Origin: Minisyncoccota bacterium | GTDB taxonomy: Bacteria; Patescibacteriota; Minisyncoccia; Phycocordibacterales; SBAW01 | Length of the DNA: 64,000 nt | NCBI GenBank assembly: GCA_035546575.1 | Contig: DASZWN010000001.1 | Span: 119,254-183,253 of the forward strand | Direction: 5' to 3' | Shown here: positions 3,055 through 58,678 of the stretch, in pieces | Layout: the number at the start of each line of letters is the position of its first letter | How positions within the stretch are numbered: position 1 is the stretch's first letter | The notes under the pieces: generated by a model | What the model was told of the DNA's origin: nothing | Database searches by the model: none | What the model saw: only the letters and a program-made list of their open reading frames with translations | Translations under genes and position numbers: made by a program

Positions 3055-3083
3055 TTGACAAATAGTCCAATAGGGTGTATACT
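3055..3083 (+). promoter_or_regulatory. Sigma70-like promoter, TTGACA-17-TATACT
   Basis: Near-consensus -35 TTGACA at 3055-3060, a 17-nt spacer, and -10 TATACT at 3078-3083. A second TTGACC lies at 3043. It sits in an AT-rich segment downstream of the gspE-like gene. Confidence 0.5.
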
Positions 3084-3111
3084 TATACCAGTTACGATCG
3101 ATTACATATTC

Positions 3112-3162
3112 TTGGGTAAGCAGCTTTTAGAGGAGGCGGCACACCATCATCACCATATATAG
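3112..3162 (+). CDS. Candidate leader peptide, 16 aa, M(TTG)GKQLLEEAAHHHHHI, with five consecutive His codons
   Basis: TTG start about 25 nt downstream of the predicted transcription start. The run CAC CAT CAT CAC CAT lies immediately before the stop. It is followed by a 9-bp perfect palindrome (3158-3176) and a terminator-like hairpin. Confidence 0.3.
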   Translation: MGKQLLEEAAHHHHHI

Positions 3163-3177
3163 ACTGTCTATATATAG

Positions 3178-3228
3178 AGGCGATTGGGGAGCATTTCTTC
3201 TAAAGGAATACTGCCCAATCGCCTTTTT
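3178..3228 (+). terminator. Terminator/attenuator-like hairpin: 11-bp stem (aggcgattggg/cccaatcgcct), 25-nt loop, then TTTTT
   Basis: Perfect 11-bp inverted repeat followed by a T-run on the plus strand. Lies downstream of the His-codon ORF. Confidence 0.45.
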
Positions 3229-3405
3229 CGTTAGGGCGGATCGTTAGCCTGGTCTCTGACAACAAAATAGCAATTAGGAATAAAGCAGAACAATAGTGGC
3301 AAAGCCACAACTGATGTTGTTCCTCGTTGCCGGACTGACTCACCTAGTCGGTACGGTACGAGGGATCGCTTCCGCGATACCCGATAGTTCAACAGGAGAG
3401 AAGTC

Positions 3406-3528
3406 ATGAAGATCATTCGTAAGGTCGGTAATTGGTGGATGAGCCTCAGTCTCGGCGAGGCTGCGATCATCTCGTTCGGTTCGGCTGTGGCGGCAATGGT
3501 TGCCATAGCAGCGATCGTCGCCAGCTAG
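3406..3528 (+). CDS. Small hydrophobic peptide, 40 aa: MKIIRKVGNWWMSLSLGEAAIISFGSAVAAMVAIAAIVAS
   Basis: Strong SD (caGGAGAgaagtcATG). Single predicted TM helix. The stop is followed at once by a 12-bp perfect hairpin at 3536-3565. Not in the ORF track because it is under 60 aa. The overlapping antisense ORF 3231..3506 has poor codon usage. Confidence 0.35.
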   Translation: MKIIRKVGNWWMSLSLGEAAIISFGSAVAAMVAIAAIVAS

Positions 3529-3647
3529 TTCGTTCGGTAACCTGCAATACGTTTTGCAGGTTACCGATCCATTCAAGTACTTGATTCGCTCGAGTATTTT
3601 AATGGGAGTAGATTATCGAAACCACCGAATGCGCGTCGGTATCGCGC

Positions 3648-3914
3648 ATGAGCCCGATGGAGGGCAAGATGTACAAAGTTCAAGTTGGGGTGTGCGGTTT
3701 GGTTCTTTTTGGTCTGCTCGGACTTGTGTTTGTGTACGGAGGGTTATTCGCATTCTTAATCGCGTTTATTGCGACGCTCGCATCTCATCGTATGGCCGTG
3801 GTTACGGCACATGAGGAGCTTGCAGAGCTGACCAAGACGCTGATTTCGCTAAGTGCGGAGAATTCCCGCTACTATCAGAAGTTCGGGGAACTGGAAGAAT
3901 CATCCGCCACCTAA
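3648..3914 (+). CDS. Hypothetical small membrane protein; likely start at the ATG at 3669 (MYKVQVGV...)
   Basis: ORF-track ORF. SD GGAGGG 4-5 nt before the ATG at 3669. One TM segment plus a charged C-terminus. An operator-like inverted repeat lies upstream. Confidence 0.4.
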   Translation: MSPMEGKMYKVQVGVCGLVLFGLLGLVFVYGGLFAFLIAFIATLASHRMAVVTAHEELAELTKTLISLSAENSRYYQKFGELEESSAT

Positions 3915-4049
3915 GCTCAGGGCGTCGTTGATGTAAACGTCTACGACGCCCATCCATTCAAGTACTCAAGATATTGAATATTTGAATGGGTCCATAGTGC
4001 GGCCCTGAACGCGAGCATTGTGCTCGCACAACGCTGAGGAGAAGTTAGA

Positions 4050-4352
4050 ATGGAAATGATGATCACGCGGGTGCACAATATGCCCGCTTTCCTGATCCCT
4101 GGGGCGTACGATCTTCTGCGGCCGGTTCCGGTCGAGGTCGTCCAGCAAGTGCGGCAGGAGCGTCAGCGTCCGGCCAAGCCGTTGGTGGTTCTGGCCAAGA
4201 AGCAGCCGCAGGTGCTGCTGCCTGCATCCATCACCACACCGACGCATTCGACGAAGTTCTACGAGCCCAAGAAGCTCGACTCCTGCATCGTCGTGGTCCG
4301 GCGCAAGGGTCGCGGGGTGCGTTCCCCGCGCGTGAAGTTCCGGGTCCACTAG
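4050..4352 (+). CDS. Hypothetical protein, 100 aa, basic C-terminus
   Basis: SD GAGGAG 8 nt upstream. Strong GC3 bias in this frame, about 62% GC, higher than the neighbouring genes. Operator-like inverted repeat upstream. Confidence 0.45.
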   Translation: MEMMITRVHNMPAFLIPGAYDLLRPVPVEVVQQVRQERQRPAKPLVVLAKKQPQVLLPASITTPTHSTKFYEPKKLDSCIVVVRRKGRGVRSPRVKFRVH

Positions 4353-4693
4353 TCCGAGTTCGGTGGCGATTGTAATGGCTCAAACCCATTACACTCGCCG
4401 CCCCTTTCAAGCATTTATCCGTCTCGATGCCGAGATGAGTGTTTGAAAGGGGAGGTTAGTATGTGCGTACTCCCCACAAGTTCTTCTCGCTGCGCTGGTT
4501 AACGCCCCGTGAGCCATGCGCGCGGTTGGCGCGGCGATCCCGACGAGTGTACTTCGTGCAGGGATCGCCGCCGCCTTCTTCTTTGTGGCAGTTTTTGGGC
4601 TATAAACGGATCCTCTACACTTCAGTCGACACAAATCCTGGGATTTGCATCGATTGGAGCGACCCGTTTGTAGCCCTAAGACTGTCATACCAA

Positions 4694-4718
4694 GCCCTGC
4701 CCAACGGCGGGGCTTTTT
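4694..4718 (+). terminator. Intrinsic terminator (gccctgcc-caac-ggcggggc + TTTTT)
   Basis: 8-bp GC-rich stem with one G-U pair, tetraloop, U5 tract. Ends the structured region 4353-4718 just upstream of tpiA. Confidence 0.7.
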
Positions 4719-4742
4719 CCTACCCAAAAATGGTATAGTTGC

Positions 4743-5504
4743 TTGGTGAAGAAACGCCTCGTTGTCGGTAACTGGAAGATGTATATCACCTCAGCCGACA
4801 CTGCGAGTGAGTTTGCACTAATGTTGCGTAAAAAAGCTCGAGGACTCTCGGGCGCTGAGGTACTTATTGCGCCGTCTTTTACGCTCATACCCGTAGTTGC
4901 TGATGTGCTTGCAAGCTCGAGCATTCGCGTAGGAGCACAAGCGCTCTCAAGCTATACCGACGAGAAACATACCGGCGATGTCTCGGGCGCGATGCTGCGC
5001 GCCGCTGGTGCTAGCTTTGTAATTGTCGGCCACTCTGAGCGCCGCGCTGCGGGCGACACCGATGCGCTTGTGCATGCGCAGCTTGAGAATGCGATATCCG
5101 CAAAGCTTATGCCGATTTTGTGCGTAGGCGAGCTTGAGCGCACGCATGAGGCCGACCATTTTTCTTTTGTTGAAGAGCAGCTCAATACGGCGCTTATGGG
5201 CATTCCCAAAAATTTACTGAAGAAACTGGTGGTCGCATATGAGCCCGTGTGGGCGATAGGAAAAAGTGCTGCAGATGCGATGAAGCCGAGCGATGTGCAG
5301 GAGATGACTATTTTTATACGCAAAATTCTAACAGAGATCCTCGATCGCAAGATGGCACAACGCACTCCAGTTTTGTACGGTGGTTCAGTCGAGCCGGACA
5401 ACGCACCGACGCTACTTAAAGAGGGAGATGTCTCCGGTTTTTTGGTCGGGCACGCTAGCACGAATGTCGACTCGTTTGTGTCTATACTAAAAGCCGTTCG
5501 TTAG
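4743..5504 (+). CDS. tpiA: Triosephosphate isomerase
   Basis: VGNWKM, GHSERR, AYEPVWAIG, YGGSV motifs. TTG start per the ORF track. Confidence 0.92.
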   Translation: MVKKRLVVGNWKMYITSADTASEFALMLRKKARGLSGAEVLIAPSFTLIPVVADVLASSSIRVGAQALSSYTDEKHTGDVSGAMLRAAGASFVIVGHSERRAAGDTDALVHAQLENAISAKLMPILCVGELERTHEADHFSFVEEQLNTALMGIPKNLLKKLVVAYEPVWAIGKSAADAMKPSDVQEMTIFIRKILTEILDRKMAQRTPVLYGGSVEPDNAPTLLKEGDVSGFLVGHASTNVDSFVSILKAVR

Positions 5505-5512
5505 AACCCGCA

Positions 5513-6481
5513 ATGATTAAACCAGTAGTAAGGTCAGTGAGAGATGCAGAGGTGAGCGGCAAGCGAGTGCTCGTGCGCGTCGACTTTAATGTGCCGATCA
5601 AGGACGGCAAGGTGGCGGAAGACATGCGCATTCGCGTGGCAATTCCAACGCTAGAACTCATTCACGAGCACGGAGCGTCGCAAATTGTATTGATCACACA
5701 TATTGGCCGGCCCGATGGAAAGGTTGTCGAAGAGTTACGCGTTGCTCCGGTTGCAGCACGTTTGCGTGAGCTAACCTCAATACCGTTTACCATGGAGGAA
5801 AATCTACGCTTTGACCCAGGCGACGAGGCCAACGACCCCGAGTTTGCAAAAAAGCTGGCAAGTCTCGGAGATATATTTGTAAACGACGCATTCTCGGTCT
5901 CGCATCGTGCGCATGCCTCCACGGTTGGCGTGGCGCAACTCCTGCCATCGTATGCGGGGCTTAATTTGGAAAAAGAGATCGAAAAACTCTCAGGCGCACT
6001 CACGCCGCCCCAAGGCGCGGTCGCGCTCATGGCCGTTACCAAAAAAGACAAGATCCCTCTTATCGACAAATTAGCGGGGCTCTACGCCAAGGTGCTTGTG
6101 GGCGGCCCTGTCCCGCCAGACTACGTGCCGAGCGCGCCAAACATCTTAATTCCAGCAGACGGCATCCCGGAGCTTACAGGCTTGCTTGATATTGGCCCTA
6201 ATACTCGCGAAGCATGGGTCGCATATGTGGCTCAGGCTCCGTTTGTGCTCTGGAACGGCCCTTTGGGTTGGTATGAAAAAGGGTACACGCAGAGTACCGA
6301 TGCTATTGCAAACCAGATCATCGCAAGCGGTACCGAGGCAGTGATAGGTGGAGGCGATACGGTTGCTGCACTTGAGAAGTTTCAATTCAACAGAGAAAAA
6401 GTTTTTATCTCCACGGGCGGAGGAGCAATGCTCGAGTTTTTGATAGCAGGCACCTTGCCCGGGATTGAGGTGCTAAAATAG
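5513..6481 (+). CDS. pgk: Phosphoglycerate kinase (compact, 322 aa)
   Basis: RVDFNVP, DAFSVSHRAH, WNGPLG, GGGDT, STGGGA motifs. Confidence 0.9.
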   Translation: MIKPVVRSVRDAEVSGKRVLVRVDFNVPIKDGKVAEDMRIRVAIPTLELIHEHGASQIVLITHIGRPDGKVVEELRVAPVAARLRELTSIPFTMEENLRFDPGDEANDPEFAKKLASLGDIFVNDAFSVSHRAHASTVGVAQLLPSYAGLNLEKEIEKLSGALTPPQGAVALMAVTKKDKIPLIDKLAGLYAKVLVGGPVPPDYVPSAPNILIPADGIPELTGLLDIGPNTREAWVAYVAQAPFVLWNGPLGWYEKGYTQSTDAIANQIIASGTEAVIGGGDTVAALEKFQFNREKVFISTGGGAMLEFLIAGTLPGIEVLK

Positions 6482-13471: not shown

Positions 13472-13780
13472 ATGAAATATGTTTTAGGTGTTGCTTTGGT
13501 CGGGATAGCGGCGGGAGCGTGTTTCGCACTCGCTAATCCCAGCCCAATCGATACGCTGTTCACAAAAGCGGGAATGATGATCCTGCCCCACAAAGGGCAA
13601 GACCGCATTTTTCCGGCCGGCAAGGGTTTTGGCACGGTAGTGGTGCCAGATCCTGAGAACCGTATCACCAGGGTCAGCAAGCCAATTACGGTCGAGATGG
13701 AGCCGAGCGCAGCCGATCTGGCAGCGTACGACTACATGCTCGCCATCGGCCTGGCCGACACTGGCAAGCCCGACCACTAA
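13472..13780 (+). CDS. Hypothetical secreted protein
   Basis: SD GGGGGA. Signal-peptide-like N-terminus (VALVGIAAGACFALA). Intrinsic terminator downstream at 13800-13836. Confidence 0.5.
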   Translation: MKYVLGVALVGIAAGACFALANPSPIDTLFTKAGMMILPHKGQDRIFPAGKGFGTVVVPDPENRITRVSKPITVEMEPSAADLAAYDYMLAIGLADTGKPDH

Positions 13781-13799
13781 CAATCCCAGATTTTCTGGG

Positions 13800-13836
13800 C
13801 AAGAAGGCGCGATGCGAATCGCGCCTTCTTTCTTTT
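13800..13836 (+). terminator. Intrinsic terminator (agaaggcgcga/tcgcgccttct 11-bp stem + T-run)
   Basis: Perfect 11-bp stem, 6-nt loop, TTTCTTTTT. Confidence 0.65.
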
Positions 13837-13837
13837 T

Positions 13838-14743
13838 ATGTATACTTTGCGCATGCAGTTTTTGCGCCGATACTTTTCTTACCTTATCCTTGCTGCTCTG
13901 GTTTTAATTTCAATCGGCATCTGGTCAGTTGTTTGGGCCGAGACTGCGCCCGGCAAACTCATTGTTGCGGTGCTCGACGTCGGCCAAGGCGACTCCATTT
14001 TTATAGAGTCTCCAACCGGAGTGCAGATTATTATCGATGGCGGCCCCGACAACTCTCTTTTGCACGACCTGCCGCATGTGATGCCGCTCTCTGACCGCTC
14101 TATCGACGCGGTGCTCGCAACGCACCTCGACGCTGACCACATCACCGGCTTTATTGACCTGCTCAAGCGCTACTCAGTTGGCGCGTTTATTGAATCAGGT
14201 TTAGTTAAGAGTACACTCACTGCGCGCACATTAGAAAAAGAAGTTGATGCGGAAAAAATCCCCCGCACGATCGCACGCCGGGGCATGTCGCTTGACCTCG
14301 GCGGGGGAGCGTATCTTGATGTCTTGTCTCCTGACTACGATGTCTCCATCTTGCCAGAGGACAAAGGCAACGAGGGGTGCATTGTCGCACATTTGGTCTA
14401 CGGCAAAACCTCGATGCTTTTAATGTGCGACGCATCTATGGATGTTGAGGATCATATTATGGCACTTGGGAGCCTGCCTACCGGACAGGCAGGCACAACG
14501 CAGATCAAAAGCGATATTTTAAAAGTCGGACACCATGGTTCGCACTCTTCGACGGGAGATGAATTTGTGAGCGAGGTTGACCCGTCGGTTGCCATTATCT
14601 CGGTTGGCGCACACAACACGTACGGTCACCCGGCTGAGCAGACACTCGACACCCTCGCAGCTCATAATGTAGAAACCCTCCGTACAGACGAGGAGGGGAC
14701 TATCAAGTTTATTTCGAACGGGGAGAAGTTTGTGAGGGATTAG
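13838..14743 (+). CDS. ComEC C-terminal metallo-beta-lactamase domain protein, encoded as a separate gene
   Basis: VLDVGQGDS, THLDADHITG, VGHHGSHSS, NTYGHP motifs and an N-terminal TM. Palindrome copy 3 lies in-frame at 14472-14494 and encodes LPTGQAGT. Confidence 0.8.
   Translation: MYTLRMQFLRRYFSYLILAALVLISIGIWSVVWAETAPGKLIVAVLDVGQGDSIFIESPTGVQIIIDGGPDNSLLHDLPHVMPLSDRSIDAVLATHLDADHITGFIDLLKRYSVGAFIESGLVKSTLTARTLEKEVDAEKIPRTIARRGMSLDLGGGAYLDVLSPDYDVSILPEDKGNEGCIVAHLVYGKTSMLLMCDASMDVEDHIMALGSLPTGQAGTTQIKSDILKVGHHGSHSSTGDEFVSEVDPSVAIISVGAHNTYGHPAEQTLDTLAAHNVETLRTDEEGTIKFISNGEKFVRD
14472..14494. repeat. Palindromic element copy 3 (gcctgcct-accggac-aggcaggc), inside the comEC-MBL CDS
   Basis: Same CCTGCC...GGCAGG core as 1252, 2472 and 32532. 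Confidence 0.6.
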
Positions 14744-28746: not shown

Positions 28747-29124
28747 ATGGCAACCGAACCAGCAGCAGAAAAGAAGGCAGCTCCTAAGCGCACTCGCAAA
28801 ACAGCCGCTCCGGCTGCAGTGCAGCGCCTTCGCATTAAGGTCCGTGCATACGAGCACAAAGTGCTCGACGCATCGGTAAAGCAGATCATGGAGACAGCGT
28901 TGCGTTACGACGCAAAGATCGCTGGCCCTATCCCGCTTCCGACCGAGATCAAAAAGTATACGGTCAACCGCTCAACCTTCGTCTACAAAGACGCTCGCGA
29001 GCAGTTTGAGATGCGCGTGCACAAGCGCCTCATCGACATCCTCGACCCGTCCCCGAAGGTGATTGAGGCTCTCACGAACCTCTCCCTCCCGTCTGGAGTC
29101 ACTATTGATGTAAAAATGGCGTAG
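28747..29124 (+). CDS. rpsJ: 30S ribosomal protein S10 (with N-terminal extension)
   Basis: [13 protein letters not shown]...GPIPLPT...[18 protein letters not shown]. Confidence 0.9.
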
Positions 29125-29232
29125 CGTAGCTACTGACATTTTTACAAATCAAAAAGAATGGCATTACAGAAAATCCCCGAAAGGGGATTTTCTGTGCTAC
29201 GTTGTAGGCAGGATAGGCAAAGGAGAAGTTCG

Positions 29233-29436
29233 ATGACATCAAAAAAGAGGGGAACGAAATTCGAAGATCAGCGCACGCGGCCTTCGGTACTCGACAAAAA
29301 GATAAGGCAGCCGGCAATTGTCGGCTCCAAACTCCCGAGACCTTCGGTGCGCGGGCGAAAGACTGCCAACAGCACTCTTTCTCCGGGAGGGCAGTTCGAA
29401 CGTCATATCAACTGGGTAAATTCCCACTTCAGGTAA
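29233..29436 (+). CDS. Candidate small basic protein, 67 aa, with an internal RPSV repeat. May instead be part of a structured RNA
   Basis: SD AAAGGAG 7 nt before the ATG. Heavy AGG/AGA codon use, atypical for this genome. Lies inside a highly structured spacer. Confidence 0.25.
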   Translation: MTSKKRGTKFEDQRTRPSVLDKKIRQPAIVGSKLPRPSVRGRKTANSTLSPGGQFERHINWVNSHFR

Positions 29437-29480: not shown

Positions 29481-29772
29481 TTTGTAACCTTTTTGTTTCT
29501 ACTCAGTTTTTATAAGTGGATAGAGTAGTCTGACAGTGGAGGCCTGTGAGGGGAAACCCTCGGACGCTCACATACGAGCTCACACATTCCTTTTGAGCCT
29601 CTGTATTTTTTACACGCTCTCCCACTCCATCTTCGTTCTTTCTTCCCCCACCCGCCTCATCATTTTTGATGAGGCATATTTCTTGCTACACTCAGGTTGT
29701 CCGGTGCCAGAAGGTATTGAGGAGGGGCGCAAGCTCTGAATCAGAGCTCTGGCAAACGACGGCCGTAACTAT

Positions 29773-29820
29773 AACGGCCCTAGGGGGTGGAGGCGTCAAA
29801 ACCTCCACCCCTGCCTTTTT
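29773..29820 (+). terminator. Terminator-like hairpin (ggggtggagg/cctccacccc 10-bp stem, then TGCCTTTTTC)
   Basis: Perfect 10-bp stem followed by a T-run, inside the rpsJ-rplC spacer. Confidence 0.5.
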
Positions 29821-29927
29821 CTTGCATAATTTTAAACCTTAGGTTATAGTCTTCTGGACTCTCGACCCGCGCCCTTGGCGGGGTAAACATAGGGTTGTCC
29901 ACGTCCCCTCGGGGACCAATAGAAACC

Positions 29928-30551
29928 ATGAAATTCATCCTTGGAACAAAGGGCAAAATGACGACTGTATACACCGAAGAGGGTCAGGCCTTTGCCGCGA
30001 CCGTTATTACTGCTACTCCGGGTGTAGTTACACAGATCAAAACAGCCGAGAAGGAGGGTTACAACGCCGTCCAGATCGGTGGTATCGACGGCAACGTAAA
30101 GCACACCAACAAAGCGCAGCGGGGCCACGCAAAGGGCAAATTCTTTAAGCATTTCCGTGAGCTTCGCGCACGCGACGGCAAACTGCCGGAGGGTGTCGAG
30201 GTAGGTGCCACAATCGACCTTTCTGCGTTTGCAGTTGGCGACAAGGTGCAAGTGTCTGCAATCTCAAAGGGCAAAGGCTTTGCCGGCGTTGTTAAGCGCT
30301 ACAACTTTAAGGGCGGTCCACGTTCCCATGGCCAGAAGCACAGCGAGCGTGCACCGGGTTCTATCGGCGGCTCTGGCGGTCGCGCAGGCGGTCGCGTTGC
30401 TAAGGGTATGCGCATGGCAGGCCGCATGGGCCAAGACCGCGTAACCGTGCGCAACCTCGCAATACTCCAGGTGCTTCCAGAGACAAACGAGCTCGTTATT
30501 GCAGGTGCAATCCCGGGCCGCGCAGGTACGCTTGTTGAGATACGCGGCTAG
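29928..30551 (+). CDS. rplC: 50S ribosomal protein L3
   Basis: MKFILGTKGKMTTVYTEEG...; start chosen at the conserved N-terminus rather than the longer ORF-track start at 29895. Confidence 0.9.
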   Translation: MKFILGTKGKMTTVYTEEGQAFAATVITATPGVVTQIKTAEKEGYNAVQIGGIDGNVKHTNKAQRGHAKGKFFKHFRELRARDGKLPEGVEVGATIDLSAFAVGDKVQVSAISKGKGFAGVVKRYNFKGGPRSHGQKHSERAPGSIGGSGGRAGGRVAKGMRMAGRMGQDRVTVRNLAILQVLPETNELVIAGAIPGRAGTLVEIRG

Positions 30552-33641: not shown

Positions 33642-34616
33642 ATGTCGAAGACAGACCAAATACGGCCGATGGTTATCGACTTGCCGCTCAAGTATCGCGG
33701 CAAAACGCGCGACACATATGAGGCCAAGTGGCCTGACCCAAACGACAAGCGCCGGCCGCCGCTCTTGATCGTGGCAAGCGACCGTATCTCGACGCATGAC
33801 GTCGTGCACAAGAGCATGATCCCAAAGAAGGGCGAGGTGCTCAATGCGCTAACGATCTTCTGGATCGTCGACGTGCTCGAGAAGCTCGGTATTGCTCACC
33901 ATCTCATTGCCTACGGCAAGAAGATCTATGATTACGTGCCGAAGCCGGACAGCGACCCCAAGGACGTACCGCTCCACCACCGAGCAATCGTAGTGAAGCA
34001 ACTCGATATAATTCTGGTCGAGTTTATCCTCCGGCAATTTCTGTGTGGGGGCTTGTGGAGCAAGCATTACAGTAAGGGTCTGGACCCTTACGGGCTCAGT
34101 ATCCCCGCAGGTCTTCCGCTCATGACGAACTTTGGCACGTTGGCAAAGTTTGCTGCACCCGTCTTCACTCCGACCAAGAAATCGGATGAAGAACATGATC
34201 CGCCGCTACTGAGCGAGGCGACTGCTCGGGAACATCCGGAGGCTCTTATGCTCAGCCGAAAAGTGTTCGATCGCGGCAGGCAACGTCTCCGTACGAGGGG
34301 AATCGAGCTCATCGACTCCAAGTTCGAGTTTGGGATCGACGAAGATGGTCAGGTGGTGCTCGCCGATGAGGTTCTCACGCCTGACTCAAGCCGCTTCGCA
34401 CTGCTCAGCGACATCAAGGAGGGGGAGAACCCGCCTTGGCTCGATAAGCAGATCGCTCGCGATTGGGCGGAAAAGCATTGGGGGCTTAACCCCAAAGAGC
34501 CTCTGGTATTTCCACCTCTTACGATCAGCGGCATCCGCAATACCTACGTCGATCTATTCGAGCAGATCGTCGGCATGAAGCTCAGTCAGTTCCAGCACGA
34601 ACGGCTCGACAACTAG
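33642..34616 (+). CDS. purC: Phosphoribosylaminoimidazole-succinocarboxamide (SAICAR) synthase
   Basis: YRGKTRDTYE, LLIVASDRISTHDVV, DSKFEFG, DEVLTPDSSRF motifs. SD GGAGG. Confidence 0.85.
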   Translation: MSKTDQIRPMVIDLPLKYRGKTRDTYEAKWPDPNDKRRPPLLIVASDRISTHDVVHKSMIPKKGEVLNALTIFWIVDVLEKLGIAHHLIAYGKKIYDYVPKPDSDPKDVPLHHRAIVVKQLDIILVEFILRQFLCGGLWSKHYSKGLDPYGLSIPAGLPLMTNFGTLAKFAAPVFTPTKKSDEEHDPPLLSEATAREHPEALMLSRKVFDRGRQRLRTRGIELIDSKFEFGIDEDGQVVLADEVLTPDSSRFALLSDIKEGENPPWLDKQIARDWAEKHWGLNPKEPLVFPPLTISGIRNTYVDLFEQIVGMKLSQFQHERLDN

Positions 34617-34632
34617 AGTTCCCAAGCAAACG

Positions 34633-34664
34633 CCCCGGCCGTTTACGGCCGGGGTTCTCTTTTT
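34633..34664 (+). terminator. Intrinsic terminator after purC (ccccggccg-ttta-cggccgggg + T-run)
   Basis: 9-bp stem. Confidence 0.7.
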
Positions 34665-34673
34665 GCCCTAAAT

Positions 34674-58269: not shown

Positions 58270-58308
58270 AGAAAGAAAACGCCCGAAAGGGCGTTTTCTT
58301 TATATCTG

Positions 58309-58678
58309 TGGAAGTGGAGAGATTTGAACTCTCGTGCAATATAAGATAGAACGCAGGTCTACAAGAGATAGACTATCTTATTTTCTTAGACTCAGTTGTA
58401 AGAGATAGACAGAATAAAACTGAGCTGCAGATCCTTTTTCTTGATTAGCAGCGAATCACTTTGCCAACCACAGCCCGATATATAACACCCTATCTCCCTA
58501 CTCAGACACTCGGGAGGGGATGGACCTTAGGCTCGCGCAGTGGCGAGAGAAAGATCATTCACCGAGAAATACGGTGAGCTAACTGATTTTGCAGTTATGG
58601 TTTGGAGCTTTTAAAGCAGATCTCCACTGCTCCCTTGCGTGTGAACTATTGATTACATTGTCTAAGCCTGTCACTCCC
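58309..58678 (-). ncRNA. ssrA: tmRNA (SsrA), about 370 nt, encoded without a CCA end
   Basis: Minus-strand RNA begins GGGAGUGACAGGCUUAGACAAUG... (compare the GGNUUCGACA consensus). It ends ...GAGAGUUCAAAUCUCUC-CACUUCC-A, with a T-arm and a 7-bp acceptor stem containing the G3-U70 wobble typical of Ala identity. Resume codon GCA near nt 87. Adjacent to smpB. Confidence 0.7.

Follow-up and report, generated by a model that had tools for sequence, protein, structure and literature searches.

A conserved structured RNA-type element at the end of a small-protein gene array between pilB and tpiA in Candidatus Paceibacterota

Background

In the early mRNA of phage T7, mutually similar RNase III hairpins of ~20 bp lie between the cistrons, and after cleavage the 3' hairpin stabilises the upstream message. 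In enterobacteria, the repetitive extragenic palindromes and bacterial interspersed mosaic elements (REP/BIME) stand after stop codons in operons, where they probably guard the upstream RNA from 3' exonucleases, and they occur in hundreds of copies genome-wide. Moreover, small RNAs such as RsaE/RoxS and CpxQ come from mRNA 3' ends or carry C/U-rich seed loops, pairing with Shine-Dalgarno (SD) regions. It is against such systems that we set here the region 4353-4718 of a 64,000-nucleotide (nt) stretch of a Minisyncoccota genome (contig DASZWN010000001.1; the whole stretch is called the window below), which lies directly upstream of the triosephosphate isomerase gene tpiA. Bacteria of the Candidate Phyla Radiation (CPR) are uncultivated, have tiny genomes and are probably attached to host cells, and to our knowledge almost nothing is known about regulation at the RNA level in these organisms.

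Clustered hammerhead ribozymes form another known case: they are reported from prophage transcripts, where they flank genes whose identity varies, and they cleave in vitro (Perreault et al. 2011, PMC3088659), their proposed role being to divide a long transcript into RNAs of one gene each (PMC3088659). Our analysis revealed that the region 4353-4718 consists of the last hairpin unit (4362-4452) and the terminator-capped non-coding tail (4453-4718) of an array of small-protein genes, and a literature search returned no paper on this RNA, nor on integrons or attC sites in such arrays of Patescibacteria.

Results

Folding and conservation of the region

The plus strand of the whole region folds at -185.9 kcal/mol, while the mean of the shuffled sequences is -120.7 kcal/mol (z = -10.5), and not one of 100 shuffles equals it; the minus strand folds more weakly, with z = -8.1. 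Control windows of equal length, 25 in all and spread across the 64 kb, had a mean z of -1.0 and a lowest z of -5.7. The hairpins of the region, H1 to H5, are listed in Table 1 together with the other features of the locus. A blastn search of the region against the window returned only the region itself, which is thus unique there, and a miniature inverted-repeat transposable element (MITE) or REP-type repeat present elsewhere in the window was rejected on this ground. With Rfam 15 at gathering scores no family matches the region, the sole hits of the window being a transfer-messenger RNA (tmRNA) and a fragment of large-subunit (LSU) rRNA, both elsewhere; a scan of 3850-4850 with a relaxed E-value gave at best Phe_leader (25.9 bits, gathering 55) and MIR6136 (25.3 bits, gathering 99), and in scans of seven relatives the tail and the units matched no family.

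Relatives were gathered by a genome scan, a metagenome scan and 12 look-ups of TpiA homologues, and are given below by handles of the form L001. In L001 and L012, whose TpiA is 75% identical to that of the window, the entire stretch 4353-4740 can be aligned at ~73% nucleotide identity, and the region is partly conserved in L013, L029, L042, L039, L035, L005, L008, L040, L062 and L026. Judged from these sequences, it is a conserved structured element of RNA type that is missing from Rfam.

The first-pass annotation had proposed a heavily structured, RNA-like region which ends in a strong intrinsic terminator, had named a structured non-coding RNA among the plausible readings, and had asked for a search for conservation and covariation in relatives. 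The hairpins, the 13-codon and 91-aa open reading frames (ORFs) and the terminator that it listed were all located where it had put them, and the folding indeed lies beyond all 25 controls. Moreover, the region is kept in relatives with compensatory base changes, the terminator agrees with the fold as well as with the covariation of its stem, and the absence of RNase P, signal recognition particle and tmRNA motifs, read by the annotation from the letters, was confirmed by the Rfam search. The picture of a structured non-coding RNA closed by an intrinsic terminator can therefore be kept, while that of a single unit can be kept only in part: the stretch is structured throughout, yet its first ~100 nt are a copy of a repeated inter-gene unit. 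The inverted repeat that forms H5, ~105 nt long, was absent from the earlier list.

The repeated inter-gene unit

Each ORF of the array is trailed by a unit in which a GC-rich hairpin of variable sequence (H1) directly abuts a conserved palindrome of 17-19 bp (H2), the consensus of the latter being CCCTTTCAAGCACTTrA, loop, TTGAGTGTTTsAAAGGG. Within the 64 kb the palindrome has three copies only, all of them in 3569-4452 (nhmmer, filters off), and at the same locus of the relatives L001, L002, L005, L008, L013, L014, L029, L035, L039, L040, L042, L062 and L063 there are one to six copies. Every unit copy in these relatives lies upstream of tpiA and on the strand of tpiA and the ORFs, and wherever the contig includes the upstream flank, the copies are found downstream of a pilB-type ATPase gene.

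In a MAFFT alignment of 39 copies, 90% of the cells in the 19 pairs of the H2 stem are paired, a share that drops to 24-56% once the partners are slid. Compensatory changes were found at 13 of the 19 pairs, with 104 cells in which both sides have changed, and 0 of 500 shuffles was as good, although the relatives share ancestry and such shuffles therefore overstate the significance, a weakness of which the slid-partner controls are free. Of the 39 copies, 33 retain a G.U wobble at columns 13/58, and 33 likewise a U.G wobble at columns 18/53; since these two pairs become mismatches on the opposite strand, it is the sense strand that folds. Besides these two wobbles, the only irregularity of the stem is a semi-conserved mismatch at columns 10/61, and the 19 pairs contain no bulges. 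The loop, on the other hand, measures from 5 to 29 nt across the copies and holds a nested hairpin in some of them, for example in the third copy of the window. Such a variable loop argues against a promoter as well as against a fixed-spacing site on double-stranded DNA for a dimeric protein. More specifically, a promoter inside the palindrome was rejected, because this loop length rules out a steady spacing of -35 and -10 elements and the promoter scan predicts none.

A CRISPR array (clustered regularly interspaced short palindromic repeats) was considered as well and rejected, as the repeats are spaced by ~95-1100 nt (mostly 300-450) rather than by 25-75, and most of the intervals hold an ORF with an SD sequence. 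Two observations in relatives concern the same palindromes. In L001 a run of N at ~1903-2002 is found between duplicate copies of the right flank of the unit, whereas the same-species metagenome contig L012 has neither gap nor duplication, and the repeated units hence seem to cause assembly errors. In L015 (1-130), a relative that has no array, one member of this palindrome family comes after a tRNA-like 3' end; it carries a U-run and, standing just before tpiA, probably acts there as an ordinary-looking terminator.

The non-coding tail and its terminator

The tail begins with the right flank of the last unit, joined to a motif AAGTTCTTC which recurs, identical or as a close GTTC variant, after stop codons and before GC hairpins in several other cassettes (e.g. 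L040 at ~3205). In L040 and the sister-lineage L014 an ORF is placed exactly at the junction of unit and tail, so that the tail of the window looks like a cassette without ORF. Of the two optional hairpins that follow, H4 has an outer stem that covaries, with a compensated one-pair insertion in L001.

What is conserved at the core of the tail is the long hairpin H5. A covariance model of it (R1), built from 11 sequences out of which the variable apical insert had been cut by hand, finds exactly one match per array locus in 11 relatives, always on the plus strand and just before tpiA, and none elsewhere in the window. When the matches were re-aligned at full length and unedited, 96.8% of the cells were paired compared with 32-48% for slid partners, 11 of 20 pairs showed compensatory changes, and again 0 of 500 shuffles was as good; the apical hairpin common to the window and L062 covaries too. 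On these alignments, both H2 and H5 are conserved structures with compensatory changes, and both favour the sense strand in folding.

H5 carries an unpaired UCCUCUA motif, placed between its inner stem and its apical hairpin. In the 11-sequence alignment CCTCT is invariant and the next A nearly so; L062 also has UCCUCUA, and the equivalent in L063, found by eye, is UCCUCC. In the minimum free energy structure of the window, CUCUACA is unpaired at this place and the first UC is paired. By its letters the motif resembles the anti-SD sequence of the ribosome.

The tail ends with a predicted intrinsic terminator that agrees with the usual definition, having a GC-rich stem of 8-10 bp, a loop of 4 nt and U5 (-18.8 kcal/mol, z = -3.9). 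It was missed by a simple terminator scan, and its stem varies with compensation in L039, L042, L013 and L029. Altogether the locus contributes three conserved RNA structures which are new and have no entry in Rfam, namely H5, the leader of the array described below and the inter-gene unit.

Absence of genes in the region and independence from tpiA

Neither of the two ORFs on the plus strand of the region behaves as a gene. The 13-codon ORF, for which the first-pass annotation had considered a regulatory peptide, has neither its start nor its frame conserved in a six-way alignment: the ATG is AAG in L013 and is missing in L029 and L042, while in L001 a 1-nt deletion after codon 3 shifts the frame and the stop codon is lost. 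The 91-aa ORF, which the same annotation had called from a GTG start, is disrupted by indels of 1, 4, 1 and 10 nt in L001 and lacks ~100 nt (the H3/H4 segment) in L013, L029 and L042, and neither this ORF nor an antisense ORF of 106 aa has a match in Pfam. Because of these indels, the ~100-nt deletion and the loss of the start codon, neither ORF is a gene, and the idea of a leader peptide fails; a leader-peptide attenuator was rejected accordingly, start codon and frame being lost in relatives.

The suggestion that the region may be a riboswitch or a leader for tpiA met a similar fate. Between the region and tpiA there are the terminator and an extended -10 element of tpiA itself, which indicates that the region is not a leader or riboswitch of this gene. 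In relatives the block AAAAATG.TATA.T is invariant, with the extended -10 only 4-8 nt before the start of tpiA, and the same arrangement is kept where the element is absent and pilB abuts tpiA. This implies that the mRNA of tpiA is probably leaderless or nearly so in the clade, whether or not an array is present. As for the gene next downstream, the phosphoglycerate kinase of the window (5513-6481, 322 aa) matches Pfam PGK in two stretches, and it looks shorter than the 346-361 aa of L033, L035, L037, L038, L062 and L063.

The array between pilB and tpiA

The region closes an insert between pilB, the gene of a type IV pilus ATPase, and tpiA, which is found in part of Candidatus Paceibacterota and measures from 0.4 to >4 kb. 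It is made up of one strong promoter, a structured leader of ~320 nt, small ORFs on the same strand (30-250 aa) and a non-coding tail that ends in a terminator. In L017-L020, L033 and L037, tpiA begins within ~30 nt of the stop codon of pilB, and leader, array and tail are all absent, from which it follows that the three form a clade-restricted insert. The tpiA tree is poorly resolved and the carriers of the array are patchy on it, so that it agrees with one origin of the insert as well as with several.

The elements CTTGACAA and GGGTGTATA of the candidate promoter, which is close to the consensus, are invariant or nearly so across six lineages. No further promoter-like site was predicted in 3500-4742 by a sigma-70 consensus scan, the only kind of promoter prediction used, and inspection of the units by eye found no consistently spaced -35 and -10 elements. 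The leader matches L012, L042, L039, L035 and L040 with nhmmer E-values of 1e-31 to 1e-85, has ~120 invariant columns in a six-lineage alignment, and shows a consensus fold of covarying hairpins with a terminator-like hairpin ~95 nt past the promoter; an Rfam scan of 3084-3405 found no match. This leader could serve as an attenuator or as an element akin to a riboswitch, or else be a small RNA of its own. A His-type attenuator, suggested by a possible 16-codon ORF (TTG start, 3113..3162) with five consecutive His codons (MGKQLLEEAAHHHHHI), is probably not what it is, as the His codons are unconserved in L012, L042, L039, L035 and L040.

The array ORFs all have SD sequences, and some look hydrophobic by eye. 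Neither ten of them compared with PHROGs nor twelve compared with Pfam gave a significant match. For ORF 1 the position of the SD sequence and of the ATGAAGA start is kept in L012 and L042, and for ORF 3 the C-terminus is kept in L013 (47% over 45 aa). Some cassette ORFs are common to several arrays, and unit types follow in the same order in different genomes, while L014 has two cassettes more than L002 in spite of common flanks that are ~92% identical. The 5' untranslated region (UTR) called type b is common to L029, L042 and L062 up to the SD sequence, yet it leads unrelated ORFs of 100, 138 and 44-45 aa. The alignments thus point to a non-coding scaffold that is better conserved than the small ORFs which it frames. 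A phage or plasmid origin of the array was rejected: the 19 hits of a pattern scan over viral contigs lack the hairpin and are due to chance, and the phage and plasmid collections gave nothing when the whole array was compared with them by blastn.

Table 1. Positions of the features of the pilB-tpiA locus in the window
Feature	Position	Strand	Remarks
Candidate array promoter, TTGACA-17-TATACT	3055..3083	+	after pilB stop codon; promoter scan 11/12
Conserved non-coding leader	3084..3405	+	terminator-like hairpin 3176-3232
Small ORF 1, 40 aa, hydrophobic	3406..3528	+	no PHROG match
Inter-gene unit 1	3536..3606	+	GC hairpin 3536-3565, palindrome 3569-3606; nhmmer; -39.7 kcal/mol, z = -9.1
Small ORF 2, 88 aa	3648..3914	+	hydrophobic N-terminal stretch by eye; no Pfam or PHROG match
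Inter-gene unit 2	3920..3990	+	GC hairpin 3920-3951, palindrome 3954-3990; nhmmer; -40.8 kcal/mol, z = -8.3
Type b 5' UTR ahead of ORF 3	3991..4049	+	conserved in L029, L042, L062
Small ORF 3, 100 aa	4050..4352	+	no Pfam or PHROG match
H1, GC hairpin of unit 3	4362..4402	+	-25.6 kcal/mol, z = -7.0; kept in L001, L013, L029
Inverted repeat I3 (= H1 arms)	4362-4378/4386-4402		17 nt, 88%
Inverted repeat I2	4393-4419/4434-4460		contains CCCCTTTCAA/TTGAAAGGGG, both of which lie inside H2 4401-4452
H2, palindrome of unit 3, nested hairpin in loop	4401..4452	+	nhmmer; -31.6 kcal/mol, z = -8.1
Right flank of last unit (GGTTAGTATGTGCGTACTCCCC) joined to motif AAGTTCTTC	4453..4486	+	kept in L001, L013, L029, L042, L040
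13-codon ORF	4461-4502	+	
91-aa ORF, GTG start	4463-4738	+	
H3, H4, optional hairpins	4487-4525, 4528-4575	+	H4 z = -5.1; in L001, L039, L062, partly L040; not in L013, L029, L042
Inverted repeat I5 (= H4 arms)	4531-4541/4561-4571		11 nt, 100% complementary, around ACGA..TCGT
H5, long hairpin	4586..4687	+	outer stem 4586-4592/4681-4687; inner 13-bp stem 4597-4609/4662-4674; variable apical hairpin; z = -8.8
Inverted repeat I1 (= H5) and nested I4	4586-4612/4661-4687		
Unpaired UCCUCUA motif in H5	4611..4617	+	between inner stem and apical hairpin
Predicted intrinsic terminator, GCCCTGCC-CAAC-GGCGGGGC	4692..4718	+	stem 4694-4701/4706-4713, U5 4714-4718
tpiA extended -10, TGGTATAGT	4731-4739	+	TGnTATAnT; within block 4731..4748; 4-7 nt ahead of the start codon
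tpiA	starts 4743 (TTG) or 4746 (GTG)	+	Pfam TIM 1.7e-68; pgk next downstream

Other observations in the window

Elsewhere in the window, an isolated match to positions 1856-2001 of the bacterial 23S rRNA model (29694-29804, plus strand, 58.8 bits) is followed by a terminator-like hairpin. It is situated in a gap of ~770 nt between rpsJ (28747-29124) and rplC (29895-30551), which also contains an unannotated ORF of 92 aa (29158-29436), and it may be a regulatory element that mimics rRNA ahead of the L3 gene. The tmRNA gene is on the minus strand at 58306-58678 (Rfam, 81.4 bits). Two of the control windows, 13501-13866 and 34301-34666, have notably low folding z of their own (-3.8 and -4.5).

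Discussion

As an explanation of the locus, we propose that the region provides the array transcript with its last processing unit and, behind that, with a structured non-coding tail, a proposal to which we would give an even chance. A single RNA started by the promoter at 3055-3083 would cover the array, and the H1/H2 units would serve as processing and stability elements at the RNA level. A cut at or near the junction of H1 and H2, possibly made by an RNase III-type enzyme on the ~19-bp stem, would leave an upstream message that ends in H1 and a downstream message that begins with H2, and the same cut at ~4400 would free a stable non-coding RNA of ~320 nt (4401-4718) with H2 first and the terminator last. 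In this RNA, H5 would show its UCCUCUA, which may pair with ribosome-binding sites of the GAGGA type, possibly those of the array's own ORFs, and the terminator would shield tpiA from read-through.

That the units may be processing and stability elements is suggested by the sense-strand wobbles, the single promoter, the ~19-bp stem and a hammerhead-like core found in L008. The last is a type III hammerhead-like sequence at 2180-2234 of L008, which reaches 32.7 bits where the gathering score is 48.5 (E = 0.0027 in a 43-kb search, 1.3e-5 locally). Its core is complete, having CUGAUGA, GAAA, A15.1-U16.1, C as H17 and three stems, and a GC hairpin immediately precedes it on the 5' side; situated between two array ORFs, it takes the place that the palindrome usually has. 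Moreover, the H2 stem, with 17-19 bp and 90% pairing in 39 copies, has the length of about two turns and the position between cistrons that are expected of an RNase III site, the cleavage itself being putative. Another pairing, between UAGAGGA in the leader and UCCUCUA in the tail, is a weak lead: TAGAGG is present in all six leaders examined, and RNAduplex chose the pairing in L042 only.

Several points weigh against this proposal. The co-transcription of the array, the cut, the release of the tail and its pairing with targets are all steps that we infer from sequence. The hammerhead-like core was found in one lineage only and below the gathering score, and not in the other arrays or that of the window (the near-identical L025 was not checked). 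For the UCCUCUA loop, RNAduplex chose no consistent target over six genomes. The H1 hairpins could be leaky terminators instead, and divergent or non-sigma-70 promoters may be present within the units. As to the preference for one strand, a G.T wobble is tolerated also in folded single-stranded DNA, so that strand-specific folding alone is no proof of a role as RNA, and the shared ancestry that inflates the shuffle controls has to be counted here as well.

Among the other explanations, it is unlikely that the tail (~4453-4718), unconnected to the processing of the array, is a small-RNA gene in its own right, driven by a promoter that has escaped recognition. Such a gene would well account for the good terminator at its end, for H5 being kept as a unit wherever the array exists, and for the exposed pyrimidine loop, which is typical of trans-acting small RNAs; however, the scan predicts no sigma-70-like promoter in 3500-4742, the sequence of H2-H3 is conserved but has by eye no -35/-10 pattern, and the SD-bearing ORF at the junction in L040 and L014 would make the tail a 3' UTR there. 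We hold it to be just as improbable that the region lacks any trans-acting role and merely stacks up hairpins for stability and termination, in part left over from a lost cassette, whose sole task is to end the array transcript and shield tpiA. This would agree with the absence of the dispensable H3 and H4 from L013, L029 and L042, with L026, where a short H5 is part of the terminator itself, and with the arrays of L002, L014 and L036, which end in other hairpins without the H5 motif. Yet a passive stack needs no near-invariant unpaired UCCUCUA and no conserved internal loops across genomes whose TpiA are only 52-78% identical. A cis-regulatory leader of tpiA, be it a riboswitch or an attenuator with the 13-codon peptide, has hardly any probability left: its position directly upstream of tpiA, the SD-like AAAGGGGAGG ahead of the short ORF and the weak Phe_leader match would speak for it, but the terminator is followed by the conserved promoter of a leaderless tpiA mRNA, loci in which pilB abuts tpiA lack the element, neither the start codon nor the frame of the mini-ORF is conserved, and the SD-like sequence is merely the 3' arm of the repeated palindrome.

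A different kind of explanation is that the palindromes, and perhaps H5, are recombination sites of folded single-stranded DNA similar to attC, the array being a locus of cassette exchange and the region its terminal empty cassette or attachment end. Much of the architecture recalls this, namely small ORFs on one strand that have imperfect palindromes of variable loop length between them, a lone upstream promoter resembling the Pc of integrons, ORFs that differ between genomes behind conserved flanks (including the type b UTR before unrelated ORFs), the two additional cassettes of L014 over L002 despite the near-identity of their flanks, and the absence of the entire insert where pilB abuts tpiA. 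Nevertheless, at the loci with annotated flanks no recombinase adjoins any array, the neighbours being nusA, an Exo_endo_phos gene, pilB, tpiA, pgk, HIT, recJ and RNase H (the search for a recombinase was confined to these flanks). By eye, without a pattern search, the 39-copy alignment shows neither RYYYAAC/GTTRRRY core sites nor extrahelical bases, and in the consensus arms, CCCTTTCAAGCACTT and GAGTGTTTGAAAGGG, GTTTGAA breaks GTTRRRY at position 4. The same unit order in different genomes is more easily explained by descent with loss than by shuffling, L008 has a hammerhead-like RNA at the equivalent place, and the viral-contig and phage/plasmid searches gave but chance matches or none. We consequently regard attC-like sites as quite improbable, and only slightly less so the broader idea that the pilB-tpiA insert is a new kind of CPR gene-cassette locus, whose scaffold is kept while recombination, at the structured repeats or between them and with no integrase next to the array, replaces its ORFs, and in which the region would be a terminal empty cassette with the fixed end.

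The array adjoins a pilus ATPase gene, and should its small proteins act in immunity or in contact with a host, its scaffold would illustrate the way in which genes of this sort are expressed and diversified. The covariance model of H5 can be used to chart the tail hairpin in public metagenomes and metatranscriptomes, and similar models are possible for the units and the leader.

Coming back to the described systems, the locus shares with the hammerhead clusters of prophages the repeated structured elements between same-strand small genes of varying identity, as well as, in L008, a hammerhead-like core at the position of the palindrome. It differs in that the window and most relatives have a plain hairpin without catalytic core, so that a cut would need a protein, and in that phage genes are absent from the pilB-tpiA locus, which also bears no resemblance to phage records. 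With the RNase III sites of T7 it has in common similar hairpins of ~20 bp between the cistrons of what would be one transcript, the cleavage being putative here, but the T7 sites have characteristic internal loops, whereas here a near-perfect stem with two fixed wobbles is always preceded by a GC hairpin. The palindromes stand just past stop codons as do those of REP/BIME; the latter however are scattered genome-wide, while 3 of 3 copies in 64 kb are at one locus, and in the relatives likewise at the same locus only. In comparison with integron cassette arrays and their attC sites, e.g. the repeats of Vibrio cholerae, there are alike one-strand small ORFs of unknown kind, imperfect palindromes with variable loops, an upstream promoter and a variable content, though here no integrase is adjacent, by eye there are neither core sites nor extrahelical bases, and the units keep a colinear order. 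As for RNAs of the RsaE/RoxS/CpxQ type, the window region has no sequence or structure match to such Rfam families, yet it resembles them in a conserved unpaired UCCUCUA in a stable hairpin just before the terminator at an operon 3' end, transcript and targets being putative. Overall we rate the locus as kin to known kinds, combining putative inter-gene processing hairpins with a structured 3' RNA, and as unusual in that conservation is higher in the scaffold than in the ORFs it carries.

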